Below, piece after piece: positions 45,073 to 61,902 of a stretch of 64,000 nucleotides of DNA. Source of the DNA: a virus (lineage: Duplodnaviria; Caudoviricetes). The stretch's first letter is position 1. Every line of letters starts with the position of its first letter. The position numbers and the translations under genes were made by a program. The notes below the pieces were generated by a model. It was not told the origin of the DNA. It made no database searches and saw only the letters and a list, made by a program, of their open reading frames with translations. The stretch spans positions 1-64,000 of IMG/VR virus record IMGVR_UViG_2905373006_000003; one strand, given 5' to 3'.

Positions 45073-45117
45073 AGCATCACAGGTGGCCAGGGAAAGGGAT
45101 TTTAAACAGCGTTAATA
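45073..45117 (-). promoter_or_regulatory. Putative late promoter (lysis/packaging operon)
   Basis: ATTAAC-GCTGT-TTAAAA, 21 nt, GATGCT. Confidence 0.7.
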
Positions 45118-45210
45118 GTGATACGACGGCGCAAAACACATGATTACTTTGAAAGAACACCAGCGCCTGACCGGCCAACAATTACAGATATTTCTCTGAA
45201 GGGTAAATGT

Positions 45211-45468
45211 ATGACTTCAGCAACTACTAAACACAGTTCACTCTGTCTGATGGGGATTACCTGCGATGAATATGACACCGCAGAAAAAATTTACACCCTC
45301 AGCGTCAATGCTGACAACCTTGAGGAATCGATAAGAGAGATACGCTCCGCACTTGAACAGATAGATAGTATGCTTAGTCCAATCCTGGAAGATGAGCTGA
45401 ACGGAATACTTATCGGACAGATAAAATTGACGATTAGTGCTAATCCAAAAAGCAGATCGCCTTACTAG
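45211..45468 (+). CDS. Small acidic hypothetical moron protein
   Basis: 85-aa ORF with GAAGGG upstream; AT-richer than the flanks. Confidence 0.6.
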   Translation: MTSATTKHSSLCLMGITCDEYDTAEKIYTLSVNADNLEESIREIRSALEQIDSMLSPILEDELNGILIGQIKLTISANPKSRSPY

Positions 45469-45488: not shown

Positions 45489-46070
45489 TCATTCACTTAC
45501 CCGTCGGCCTGTTTTTGCCGGAAGTGGGATCAATATCTCCCAGAATGGCTCTTCACCATTTGTATATGCAAGACTTTCACCTGACCAGTACAGATACGCC
45601 TGGCGATATATATCCAGAATTGGGCCATTACTGTCAAGCAGTCTCATATCACCAAGGTGAACCGGTTTTTCGTTCCTGACTTCATATATCGGCGCTATCC
45701 GTATTCCATCATCACCACGTTCGCGGGCCAGCAATTCCCTGAATTGTTTAACCTCACTGATTTCCCGACAGGCAAACAGCGATTGATATCGGGATGGTTT
45801 CTCAGGGAAGTCGCTACGCCGAACCAGTTCAAATATCAGCCCAATCAAAAAGGCTTTATCTCTTTGATGGTTATCATCGAAAAGAGCAGGATTATAGAGG
45901 TAGTTATAGCCATGCTTCGACAACCCCTCGGGATATATTTGATTAAGGAAACCGGCCAATTCTGGCTGTTTTGGGGTATGGTGACGCAGTGTTATTACAT
46001 GAAATGGAAACAGACTATTTGCAGAATCTAGCGTGTAATACTTTTCCAACGTAAGGCATATCCTTATCAA
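45489..46070 (-). CDS. DUF2441-like ADP-ribosyltransferase-fold protein (start possibly 46049)
   Basis: FELVRR.DFP.KPSRYQSLFAC, AYLYWSG, PFWEILI motifs. Confidence 0.7.
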   Translation of the reverse strand: MIRICLTLEKYYTLDSANSLFPFHVITLRHHTPKQPELAGFLNQIYPEGLSKHGYNYLYNPALFDDNHQRDKAFLIGLIFELVRRSDFPEKPSRYQSLFACREISEVKQFRELLARERGDDGIRIAPIYEVRNEKPVHLGDMRLLDSNGPILDIYRQAYLYWSGESLAYTNGEEPFWEILIPLPAKTGRRVSE

Positions 46071-46104
46071 ATCAGCTAAATGACGTGTTCTTATGCTGCT
46101 ATCC

Positions 46105-46150
46105 AGTAAACTGCATTAATAGCCGCCGAATACTCCCAAAATGCATCCTG
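46105..46150 (+). promoter_or_regulatory. Putative late promoter for the methylase
   Basis: AGTAAA-CTGCA-TTAATA, 22 nt, CATCCT; same architecture as the four virion promoters. Confidence 0.6.
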
Positions 46151-46157
46151 ACAATGA

Positions 46158-46252
46158 AAGAACGACCAGCCCGGTGCGCGAACACCGGACTGGCCATCAA
46201 CCCACAGAGATTGCCTGTGAGCCGACCAGGGTTCAGTCAGTCCCGCGAGACC
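46158..46252 (-). ncRNA. Candidate cis-antisense sRNA to the methylase leader
   Basis: Minus-strand promoter TTTACA-17-CAGGCT (46286-46258) facing three hairpins that end in a T-rich stretch. Confidence 0.5.
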
Positions 46253-46299
46253 TGATTAGCCTGCCATATTTTTTAATTATTGTAAAAGGCTTACGGATA

Positions 46300-47070
46300 A
46301 TGAAAGAACGCACTTTACCCATCGTCCCCTGGATAGGGGGGAAACGTCGTCTGGCGAAACATATTTTACCGTTATTCCCGTCCCATACCTGTTATGTGGA
46401 ACCCTTCTGTGGAGCTGCTGCACTTTATTTTTTAAAAACGCCCAGTAAAACAGAGATTATTAATGATATTAACGGTGAGCTGATTAACCTTTACCGGGTG
46501 GTGAAACACCATCTGGAAGAATTTATCCGCCAGTTCAAATGGGCACTGGTCAGCCGCCAGATGTATAAATGGCTGCAGAACACCCCGGAAGAAATACTCA
46601 CGGATATTCAGCGGGCGGCACGGTTTTATTATCTTCAGAAGCAGGCTTTTGGTGGCAAAGTCGCAGAGCACAGCTTCGGAACGTCCACCACCAGCCCGCC
46701 ACGTTTTAACCTGCTGCGTATTGAAGAAGAGCTTTCTCTGGCGCATCTGAGGTTATCCAGAACGATCATTGAACATCTGGACTGGCGTCAGTGTATTGAA
46801 CGCTATGATCGGCCACACACGCTGTTTTACTGTGACCCGCCTTACTGGGGAACGGAAGGTTATGGTGTGGATTTTCCGATCGGAAACTATGTCCATATAG
46901 CTGAGCTGGCACGGAGTATCAAAGGCAGGATGATTATTTCGGTAAACGATATACCAGAAATGCGGCAGGCGTTTCAGGGGCTGACGATTCAGGTGGTTGA
47001 TATCAGCTACAACCTGAAGGTCACCGGAAAAGCAGCCCGCAAGAAGGAGTTGATTATTTGCAATTTCTAG
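46300..47070 (+). CDS. DNA adenine methyltransferase (D12/Dam class)
   Basis: PWIGGK, YVEPFCG, FYCDPPY motifs. Confidence 0.93.
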   Translation: MKERTLPIVPWIGGKRRLAKHILPLFPSHTCYVEPFCGAAALYFLKTPSKTEIINDINGELINLYRVVKHHLEEFIRQFKWALVSRQMYKWLQNTPEEILTDIQRAARFYYLQKQAFGGKVAEHSFGTSTTSPPRFNLLRIEEELSLAHLRLSRTIIEHLDWRQCIERYDRPHTLFYCDPPYWGTEGYGVDFPIGNYVHIAELARSIKGRMIISVNDIPEMRQAFQGLTIQVVDISYNLKVTGKAARKKELIICNF

Positions 47071-59937: not shown

Positions 59938-60987
59938 TTACTTACAAGTTAGAGCTTTTATTTCTTGTTCTGTTTGTTCAAATCGCTCTTTCTCAAGTTC
60001 AACTCCAAGAACTCGACGATTTAACTTTAATGCGGACTTTAGTGTTGCACCCGACCCCATAAAAAAATCAGCAACCAGATCACCTTCGCGACTGCTTGAG
60101 CGAATAATGTGTTCCATCATTTCAGCTGGTTTTTCACAAGGATGTTTACCTGCGTAATATTGCACAGGTGGATATGTCCACACATCGGTGTAAGGAACAT
60201 CAACGGTGACAGAAAAAGGACGGCGCAATAATTGATATTGTTCAGCAAGCTCTTGGTACTCTCGACTAAGAGAAGCCTGCACCTCTATCAAATCAGTATG
60301 ATCACGATTTAAAGGATTACTACTAAACTTTTCACTTGCTACGCGATGAAACAGCTCCTGCAGTTTTTTGTAGTCAGACTCACTCGGTAGTTGCCATTGG
60401 CTGTAACTAAACCAGTGTGAAGCCATTTGTTTACCTGTGGCCTGTTTTATTTCTTTTGCTGTTATTCCTAACGATTCACGTGCAGATTTAAAATACTCAA
60501 TTAAAGGCTTAAATACATTTTCTTTAAGCGCTTTGCATTGCTGAAGATAAGCACTACTTTTGCCCTTGTGTGGACTTTGATAATGTTCAGCAAATAAAAT
60601 TCTTTCAGTGCTTGGAAAGAAACTGCGTAAATCAGCTTTACATGCCCTACGCCAAGGCCCAGATGGTTTAGCCCATACAATGTGACTTAGAATATTAAAT
60701 CTTTCACGAACGAGTAATTCTGTATCTGACGCTAGTTTCGAACCGCAAAAGATATAAAGGCTACCGTTAGGCTTTAATACTCGCCAAAATTCCGCAAGCA
60801 TTTCATCAAGCCAAGATAAATATGATGTTACGTTTTCCCACTGATTATCCCAACTACAAGACTTCACCTGAAAGTAAGGCGGGTCAGTTGCGATTAAGTC
60901 AATACAATTATCGGGAAGTGTTTTTATATAGCTGAGTGAGTCATCATTGACTAAATTTACACTGTTTAAATTCACAGTATTTTTCAT
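59938..60987 (-). CDS. N6/N4 DNA methyltransferase (beta class)
   Basis: DPPYF, HPCEKP, DFFMGSG motifs. Confidence 0.93.
   Translation of the reverse strand: MKNTVNLNSVNLVNDDSLSYIKTLPDNCIDLIATDPPYFQVKSCSWDNQWENVTSYLSWLDEMLAEFWRVLKPNGSLYIFCGSKLASDTELLVRERFNILSHIVWAKPSGPWRRACKADLRSFFPSTERILFAEHYQSPHKGKSSAYLQQCKALKENVFKPLIEYFKSARESLGITAKEIKQATGKQMASHWFSYSQWQLPSESDYKKLQELFHRVASEKFSSNPLNRDHTDLIEVQASLSREYQELAEQYQLLRRPFSVTVDVPYTDVWTYPPVQYYAGKHPCEKPAEMMEHIIRSSSREGDLVADFFMGSGATLKSALKLNRRVLGVELEKERFEQTEQEIKALTCK
60960..60979. promoter_or_regulatory. LexA-box-like site in the first codons of the methylase
   Basis: TACTGTGAATTTAAACAGTG (minus strand) = CTG-N10-CAG. Confidence 0.6.
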
Positions 60988-61006: not shown

Positions 61007-61122
61007 TGATAAGCTCACTATGCTTTGTGCACATAAGCAGTGGGCTTTAGTTTGTCCGTGATCTACCAGAACGGGTGAATGACTGTAAAGGTGCTACCAA
61101 CACTTTTACAGTCGCCCATTTT
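61007..61122 (+). ncRNA. Candidate cis-antisense sRNA / structured leader of the methylase
   Basis: Extended -10 TGnTAAGCT, hairpins, final long hairpin GACTGTAAAGGTG-CTACCAA-CACTTTTACAGTC then TTTT. Confidence 0.45.
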
Positions 61123-61129
61123 CACAGTA

Positions 61130-61327
61130 TTAGATATTTTGAAATGTGTTTTCTTTGATGTTTTCTTTGATTAGCCCCGCCATCGCCAACTGAGTTAATA
61201 TCAATTGACAACGTGGCTCAGTTAAATAAGTAAACTGTGCAACTTCGCCAACAGTTACCTCTTTCGTATGCGGAACAACTTCAAAAACAAGTCTTGCCTC
61301 TTCTGTCATATCACTATGTTTTAACAT
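61130..61327 (-). CDS. Small winged-helix protein preceding the methylase
   Basis: TVGEVAQFTYLT...CQLILTQL..AGL. Confidence 0.75.
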   Translation of the reverse strand: MLKHSDMTEEARLVFEVVPHTKEVTVGEVAQFTYLTEPRCQLILTQLAMAGLIKENIKENTFQNI

Positions 61328-61462
61328 GATATTTTAATACCTTTGGTCAGTTATTGGTCGTGAACACACATGTAACTCTGAACAAAGGAAACAGCAAGCC
61401 TTATCTGTTTTAGATACAAAAAAAACCAGCTCTATGGCTGGCTTTTATAGGTATATCAGTAC

Positions 61463-61795
61463 TTACTTATCTACAACAGTGAATTGCAGTGCAATTAAAT
61501 GCTTTTTGCAATCTTTAATGCCCTCGTTGTAACCGGCATCATAAAAATTTTCTGGCTTTTCTTTAAGGTTAGGAAGATTTATTTTCATTTTTTTCTTAGC
61601 ATCGTTAGCGCCTGCATAATAAATCTCCCAAAGTAATTGAGTGCCCGGATCTGAATATTTAGAGATAGTTTCACGCTCTACAAGGAATCTGAAAGTAGAG
61701 TCACGCTCCCTGCTCAGGTCAATAGACTTCACTTTTCTTTTTATCTGTCTTTCAAATAATTCCTGCAACCCTATTAAATCCATCCTAAATCCCAT
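61463..61795 (-). CDS. Hypothetical moron downstream of pR'
   Basis: AT-rich ORF flanked by terminators. Confidence 0.65.
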   Translation of the reverse strand: MGFRMDLIGLQELFERQIKRKVKSIDLSRERDSTFRFLVERETISKYSDPGTQLLWEIYYAGANDAKKKMKINLPNLKEKPENFYDAGYNEGIKDCKKHLIALQFTVVDK

Positions 61796-61797
61796 GT

Positions 61798-61902
61798 AAA
61801 AAAGCCCCGCAATTAGCGAGGCCTTAAATTCGTTTCCTGCTTTGCGTTTAAAGCTCTACGCAGCATATACGAAAACTATAACTTCATTGTTCAAAAAGTC
61901 AA
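61798..61902 (-). promoter_or_regulatory. Late promoter pR' and terminator tR'
   Basis: TTGACT-16-TATAGT right after Q; -10-like TATGCT pause element; GGCCTCGC/GCGGGGCT hairpin + T run. Confidence 0.7.

Follow-up and report, generated by a model that had tools for sequence, protein, structure and literature searches.

A structured RNA family encoded head to head with phage adenine methylase genes from two unrelated classes, and its possible role in methylase silencing

Results

A single family of structured RNAs is encoded head to head with adenine methylase genes that belong to two unrelated classes. Both arrangements occur in the DNA analysed here, a 64-kb stretch referred to below as the window: one copy faces a Dam-like gene and a related copy faces a beta-class methylase gene. 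Comparison of phage and prophage relatives shows that the RNA structure next to the Dam-like gene exists only on the minus strand, opposite dam. Our preferred reading, which we hold with moderate confidence, is that this is a small RNA of about 98 nt, transcribed from its own promoter on the minus strand, and that it acts as a negative regulator of methylase expression.

Genomic setting

The window is part of an 80.7-kb provirus record and contains two prophages, one nested within the other. The inner prophage, at approximately 22.3–57.3 kb (also given as about 22.1–57.4 kb), is a BcepMu-type transposable phage. Its arms are divergent, the early genes being read from the plus strand and the late genes from the minus strand; among its genes are those for an rve transposase and the AAA partner of this transposase, Gam, GemA and Mor, together with an SLT endolysin that has 60% identity to BcepMu gp22; and a close relative is classified as Bcepmuvirus. 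The outer prophage is lambdoid, with a Q-like gene, a beta-class methylase, lysozyme and Rz. The inner prophage is inserted between the structural genes and the lysis genes of the outer phage. The two methylases belong to PF02086 and PF01555 respectively, in agreement with the original prediction, which had assigned them to different classes.

The stretch of interest lies between the inner Dam-like gene (plus strand) and a cargo gene encoding DUF2441 (minus strand), with the lysis genes beyond the cargo. The features identified here are collected in Table 1. The dam gene is 771 bp long in five of the six annotated relatives, starting at the equivalent of 46300. An N-terminal extension of dam from 46141 was considered and rejected, because the frame is not conserved and the leader of most relatives contains a 1-base indel.

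Table 1. Positions of the RNA elements and of the neighbouring genes in the window.
Feature	Position	Strand	Remarks
Dam-like D12-class adenine methylase gene (PF02086)	46300..47070	+	Head to head with the RNA gene
−35-like hexamer TTTACA	46281..46286	-	Overlaps the dam ribosome-binding region; TTTGCA, TTTTCA or TTTCCA in relatives
Extended −10-like element TGGCAGGCT	46258..46266	-	Hexamer CAGGCT at 46263-46258, TG at 46266-46265
P1, 5′ hairpin/palindrome	46240..46251	-	At the predicted RNA start (~46251); hairpin 3 of the original prediction
P0 clamp, 5′ strand	46231..46234	-	GAAC here, 7-9 bases in distant relatives; 4 of 8 pairs doubly changed
P3 hairpin	46196..46226	-	Hypervariable loop; hairpin 2 of the original prediction, extended; 96.8% of its cells form pairs, G.U in many cases
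P4 terminator hairpin	46164..46195	-	Hairpin 1 of the original prediction; 7 of 11 pairs doubly changed
U-rich tail, predicted 3′ end	46153..46163	-	Includes the P0 3′ strand (46160-46163); limit of the strict homology block
Degenerate second copy of the RNA 3′ part	45140..45215	-	Holin side of the cargo; terminator-like site at 45175-45159
Outer beta-class methylase gene (PF01555)	59938..60987	-	349 residues
Related RNA at the outer methylase	61007..61136	+	TGATAAGCT at 61007-61015, three hairpins, terminator 61081-61113, tail GCCCATTTTCAC; predicted transcript about 61022-61125

The cargo, which comprises the DUF2441 gene (minus strand) and a gene for 116 residues at 45118–45468 (plus strand), is flanked by two copies of the 3′ part of the RNA, one intact and one decayed, and CTATTAAYGCNGTTTA follows each copy in the window (45097–45215 and 46106–46256). 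This arrangement looks like module exchange at a repeated terminator. Two other loci, L130 and L145, give weak model matches at the place equivalent to the decayed copy. The 22-base motif CTATTAACGCTGTTTAAAATCC is found on the minus strand at 45097–45118, about 50 bases before the holin start, with a partial copy on the same strand at 46106–46122; it is retained in close and distant relatives, and has a good −10 (TAAAAT) and no −35. This motif may be an activator-dependent lysis promoter, perhaps a bidirectional one. A 12-base direct repeat, AATGAAAGAACG, found at 46153–46164 and 46299–46310, brackets the RNA gene and its promoter (146 bases), one copy forming the RNA tail and the other the region of the dam start codon.

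Conservation and structure of the RNA

Among 5426 complete E. coli genomes, 28 match positions 45900–46500. These matches begin between 46101 and 46155, never further left, and the upstream neighbours vary among relatives, being DUF2441, an ATPase gene or nothing. We therefore place the start of the strictly homologous block at TGAAAGAACGACC (46155), and conclude that the block travels with dam. Scanning viral contigs for an exact pattern yielded 53 loci, which when pooled with others comprised 43 distinct leaders. Scored against the first helix model, these contain 295 alignment cells that are G.U on the minus strand versus only two that are A.C (and hence G.U on the plus strand); the excess of G.U on the minus strand indicates that the structure is selected in a minus-strand RNA. 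The close relatives were informative on the terminator only, and more distant relatives were therefore sought in two ways: as loci anchored on the holin gene, which gave matches of 36–59 bits, and by a degenerate pattern scan of species genomes. The latter gave 36 loci, from Pantoea, Photorhabdus, Xenorhabdus, Serratia, Brenneria, Symbiopectobacterium, Arsenophonus, Citrobacter, Salmonella diarizonae and others.

The two strands differ markedly in their folding. The minus strand of the stretch has a predicted energy of −52.8 kcal/mol (z −3.9), a value that none of 200 shuffles equals, while the plus strand reaches −32.4 kcal/mol (z −1.6), with 12 of 200 shuffles as good. An alignment of 67 distinct sequences (A5) has 384 G.U cells at paired positions versus 42 A.C cells, and 92.3% of the cells are paired when read on the late strand versus 76.8% on the dam strand; pairing in slid controls reaches only 35–50% of cells. 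Fourteen of the 33 pairs are changed on both sides, amounting to 116 cells, and none of 500 shuffles equals this. The covariation among homologues that the original prediction called for is thus present, and selection of structure on the strand opposite the methylase gene is found for the inner and outer copies alike.

Single-sequence folds of the 67 sequences have a common plan, consisting of P1, the P0 clamp, an extended P3 and the terminator hairpin P4. In the clamp, a purine stretch after P1 pairs with the tail after the terminator, enclosing P3 and P4. The three hairpins originally described are all found where they had been placed, as P4, the core of P3, and P1. A different helix, P2 (CUGACUG/UGGUCGG), was discarded: it is absent from the distant relatives, and is replaced by the extended P3 and the clamp P0. 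The final hairpin has the character of an intrinsic terminator, being G+C-rich and followed by a U run, and a terminator-like site with 17 pairs is found on the minus strand at 46198..46161; its U run is interrupted (TCGTTCTTTCA).

The P1 stems vary in sequence between groups and keep their self-complementarity, and the imperfect copies (in the window and at loci L206 and L202) have G.U on the RNA strand. The Photorhabdus/Xenorhabdus group has an insertion that breaks P1, and the remaining structure is kept. The apex of P1 is palindromic in nearly every group, with CGCG, TCGA or TTAA in the inner type and GCGC, GTGCAC or GCGCGC in the outer type. A palindromic apex is not needed in an RNA loop, and it is possible that it represents a protein site or takes part in loop-loop pairing.

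Predicted promoter and transcript

The positions of the promoter and the terminator lead us to predict that the RNA starts at about 46251 and ends at about 46154. The resulting length of approximately 98 nt is close to the original prediction of a roughly 95-nt RNA ending at hairpin 1 and a T-rich run. The promoter had been described as a well-formed sigma70 promoter on the opposite strand. Its hexamers, the 17-base spacer and the TG are all present (TTTACA-17-CAGGCT with TGn), but it is not well formed: the −10 hexamer matches TATAAT at two of six positions, and a consensus promoter scan of both strands of 46100–46300 called no promoter. The −10 is poor overall, at two to three of six positions. 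Its variants in the different groups (CAGGCT, TAGGCT, TAGACT, TAAGCT and CAGTCT) have A2, C5 and T6 in common. A TTnnCA hexamer is found 16–17 bases upstream of the −10 hexamer in relatives. The conservation of the −10 hexamer argues for its use. At one locus (L208) the upstream sequence is unrelated and there is no dam, and here TTGACG-17-AAAAAT is found at an equal distance before P1. We infer transcription of the RNA from a weak extended −10 promoter of its own, whose −35 overlaps the ribosome-binding region of dam. The alternative that this promoter serves only the DUF2441 gene can be dismissed, because the terminator intervenes and many relatives have the RNA without DUF2441.

Public transcript assemblies offer a weak hint of expression in their coverage of the RNA gene. 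A gut metatranscriptome includes a 114-nt contig that covers 46154–46252 at a depth of 73, flanked by neighbouring contigs of depth 19 and 3; the deep contig is 86% like the window, and hence possibly comes from a different phage than the shallow contigs. In a second study, an RNA contig spans 46154–46607 and stops 18 bases to the left of 46154, and a probable DNA run continues across this position. The RNA contigs are unstranded, and give neither strand nor ends. The RNA contigs of X6 and X1 are uninformative on expression, and gaps in the coverage of the region are no evidence either way.

Linkage to methylase genes

The 80 holin-anchored loci comprise 64 that contain both dam and the RNA, two that contain the RNA with only a remnant of dam (L181 and L182), one that contains the RNA without a methylase (L208, where it follows a DUF7424 gene), seven that contain neither, and six in which the upstream sequence is too short to judge. 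The genome loci give a similar picture: a Dam match of at least 114 residues is found upstream on the opposite strand in 33 of 36, a remnant of 23 residues in one, and none in two. The predicted RNA start lies 35–49 bases before the methylase start codon for both enzyme classes and in different phage types.

The RNA at the outer methylase

The leader of the outer methylase is conserved in 40 phage records, which include cdtI, SfV, mEp460, Stx2c phages and PY54. It folds better on the plus strand, that is, antisense to the outer methylase, and in six outer sequences three hairpins are found, in which 14 pairs have both partners changed, the final hairpin being followed by GCCCATTTTCAC. The outer type was examined less fully than the inner type.

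A model built from close relatives only (R1), which contained the incorrect P2 helix, found no second copy in the window at E-values up to 10. This null result was at first taken as evidence against a shared module, and was overturned by a broader model, R2. The latter was built from the BcepMu-type alignment alone and was run with filters off; its E-values are rough. A genome search that used R2 under default filters left the outer copy unreported. R2 matches outer-type leaders over their full length on the antisense strand: the matches are to Eeyore (37.3 bits, rough E-value 5.5e-8), phiNP (31.9 bits), cdtI (24.6 bits), positions 61010–61136 of the window (22.1 bits, rough E-value 7.8e-4), a Hafnia phage (18.3 bits) and PY54 (13.3 bits). 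Within the window the opposite strands of the two copies score 14 and 13 bits, and the best remaining match 10.8 bits. R2 also matches 57 of 80 loci that were fetched by a pattern unused in its training, with scores of up to 48 bits. The proposal that the outer beta-class methylase has the same layout is therefore borne out by a model that was derived from the other phage type.

In 21 distinct rows of the outer type (alignment A7, which was fitted to the model), 16 of 33 pairs are changed on both sides. The motif TGnTA(G/A)GCT occurs 23–28 bases from the methylase start codon in all six aligned outer leaders and in 24 of 47 distinct fetched sequences; 20 of the 23 fetched sequences that lack it are chance pattern matches. 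Short motifs in the stretch from start codon to hexamer are common to the inner and outer types. Another candidate for the outer promoter, TTTACA-16-TATTTT at 60956–60983, was rejected, its −35 being lost in five of five relatives.

Several other features of the outer region were noted. In many outer-type leaders (for example L245 and L248) a GATC lies between the methylase start codon and the −10 of the RNA, in the form of CATGGATCAG or CATAGATCAG; the inner type has no GATC in this position. Directly upstream of the terminator of the outer RNA is a small open frame of about 62 residues (61140–61326, minus strand), and in cdtI, phiNP and Hafnia phage yong2 the place of this frame is occupied by small annotated genes, of which that in yong2 is named as a transcription regulator. 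A late-promoter-like sequence, TTGACT-16-TATAGT, occurs within 61795–61902 on the minus strand, just after the Q-like gene, and is followed by a hairpin and T run. Ahead of the small frame, at 61421–61446, the minus strand has another strong terminator-like site.

Discussion

Orphan methylases enable phages to overcome host restriction, but can also be harmful to the chromosome of the host. As a negative regulator, the RNA described here would hold methylase expression down. In lambdoid phages the methylase would be read within the late operon, as an mRNA that must contain the full complement of the RNA, and the RNA would be a cis-antisense partner of the methylase leader. The outer methylase lies inside the late operon, downstream of the late-promoter-like site (61902–61875) and of two terminators, and its message would therefore carry the RNA complement.

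For BcepMu-type phages two arrangements can be envisaged. A promoter beyond the RNA gene would give dam a long leader, to which the RNA would be antisense; the spacer beyond the RNA gene and before the holin holds the conserved CTATTAACGCTGTTTAAAATCC (45118–45097), part of which is duplicated beside the RNA gene (46122–46106). Alternatively, the dam promoter would lie in the 45 bases before the start codon, so that the two back-to-back promoters would overlap and compete. The terminator of the RNA would also stop leftward transcription ahead of the lysis genes. No dam promoter could be placed in the inner phage. The original interpretation as an antisense module is upheld as to a recurrent, structured, terminator-ended RNA opposite methylases of two classes; overlap with the inner dam mRNA, silencing of the enzyme and a role in place of com stay hypothetical.

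Direct pairing with the inner phage was also considered. Between the RNA tail and the dam start there is a complementarity of 12 bases in the window and of 9–10 bases in close relatives. This pairing is not kept in the distant groups, where z-scores are near 0, and is significant in the close family only; we therefore place no reliance on it. A k-mer complementarity scan of the inner phage found only the dam start, with no other stretch of at least 11 bases; complementary matches of 9 and 10 bases number 13, as compared to a shuffle mean of 7.6 and a highest shuffle value of 23. A lambda-like late-operon leader with antitermination was discounted, the outer copy being oriented against the late operon, and a comparison with other late intergenic regions gave only short and unconvincing motif matches.

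The RNA could in principle act in trans, on messages of the host or of other phages, its methylase neighbourhood arising from shared promoter DNA or co-inheritance. Such a role would suit the RNA of L208, which follows a DUF7424 gene without a methylase, and an RNA body that is more conserved than a cis partner requires; the hypothetical status of the overlap between inner RNA and dam mRNA also speaks for it. We nevertheless consider it unlikely, since the RNA is tied at 35–49 bases to the start codons of two unrelated methylase classes in different phage types, its hypervariable loops and its tail held in P0 leave little conserved single strand, and no other part of the inner phage has a complementary stretch of at least 11 bases, the 9–10-base matches being within the shuffle range. 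The covariation of P0 and P3 is unneeded by a bare terminator, and a promoter-like hexamer is conserved at a fixed distance; these two observations make it decidedly unlikely that the element is only a cis terminator or insulator on the late strand, which would end leftward transcription from the repressor side antisense through dam and so protect the lysis genes, with the extra hairpins stabilising the 3′ end. That explanation also fails for the lambdoid phages, in which the RNA points against the late operon and the lysis genes would not be insulated. It does agree with the absence of any other minus-strand terminator-like site from the repressor gene to the lysis genes, with the location of the BcepMu-type RNA always on the holin strand and upstream of the holin, with the decayed second copy, which retains the terminator only, and with the contig depth of 19 over the promoter region in X7, which fits read-through.

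Two further explanations place the conserved function outside the antisense RNA. The functional structure could be the sense leader of the methylase mRNA, hiding the ribosome-binding site in the style of Mu com-mom, with the antisense RNA incidental. In both types AGGCU at the ribosome-binding region is a potential pairing partner of AGCCU, the complement of the −10 hexamer, and in the outer copy of the window both sides have changed to wobble pairs on the sense strand. The case for this pairing is based on a single double change, the body folds far better on the opposite strand (384 G.U versus 42 A.C), and the leader has no conserved Com-like reading frame; we therefore regard a sense leader as very unlikely. 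It is highly improbable that the conserved parts are simply DNA sites, with P1 as the operator for a dimeric phage regulator of divergent promoters. The palindromic centre of P1 in most groups, which an RNA loop does not need, would be explained in this way, but P0, P3 and P4 would not; moreover the imperfect P1 copies (window, L206, L202) are G.U on the RNA strand, and the Photorhabdus/Xenorhabdus insertion breaks P1 while the rest persists.

Returning to a small RNA that represses the methylase, we suggest tentatively that it forms part of a portable “muzzle”, comprising the antisense RNA, the promoter from which it would be read and the methylase leader as far as the start codon, which may have moved between enzyme classes and may silence methylases in lysogens. 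With equal caution, the enzymes concerned would be Dam-like in BcepMu-type phages and beta-class, M.EcoGII-like in lambdoid and other phages, and the silence of promiscuous methylases would thereby find an explanation. The junction of the module at the start codon suggests that regulatory RNA and gene can recombine as separate parts. The RNA is fixed at methylase start codons across many Enterobacterales genera and several phage types, and constitutes an unannotated RNA family for the databases.

According to the accessible parts of two published studies, prophage methylases of both classes, namely the beta-class M.EcoGI and M.EcoGII (349 residues) and the D12-class orphan M.EcoMIV, are unexpressed in lysogens, and constitutive M.EcoGII harms the cell (PMC5778455, PMC4659465). 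Their silence fits the silencing idea, without testing it. In those same parts the silence of both classes is published without a stated mechanism, and the conserved RNA is a concrete candidate for the control element.

Comparison with known systems

A search of the whole 64 kb against Rfam 15 gave no matches at the gathering score. Local permissive Rfam scans matched only mir-374 (23.9 bits, versus a threshold of 54), and gave nothing for the outer copy. No description of this RNA was found in the literature within reach, which excluded subscription journals and supplements. The outer gene resembles M.EcoGI and M.EcoGII in being also 349 residues long and a member of PF01555; the accessible parts of the papers on M.EcoGI, M.EcoGII and M.EcoMIV name no RNA (PMC5778455, PMC4659465).

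Two of eight distant loci match RF00236 (ctRNA_pGA1) with 31.7 and 30.8 bits, below the gathering score of 45, and the window has no match. The likeness lies in two adjacent hairpins with a terminator; the setting differs, being a plasmid replication gene for ctRNA_pGA1 and a phage methylase here.

Lambda 6S and StxS are terminated late leader RNAs, produced as sense transcripts from the Q-controlled late promoter. They too are short RNAs that end at a terminator near late genes, but the outer RNA runs against the late operon, for which the candidate Q-type late promoter is at 61902–61875. In Mu com-mom, a phage DNA-modification gene is off until late infection and is controlled at its leader. 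The system proposed here would be similar in keeping a phage DNA-modification gene off except late, by way of the leader. It differs in that the conserved structure is on the opposite strand and that there is no Com-like frame in the leader: the 146-base leader has a single open frame, which a 1-base indel interrupts in most relatives, so that the inner gene probably does not belong to the com-mom type.

Close parallels in form are lambda OOP and P22 Sar, two short cis-antisense RNAs of phages, each with a promoter and an intrinsic terminator of its own. Like them, the RNA described here is small, structured and terminator-ended, lies opposite its putative target, and would be expected in the lysogen. 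It is set apart from them by a target overlap that is hypothetical in the inner phage, by its clamp-closed junction, and by its linkage to two classes of methylase.
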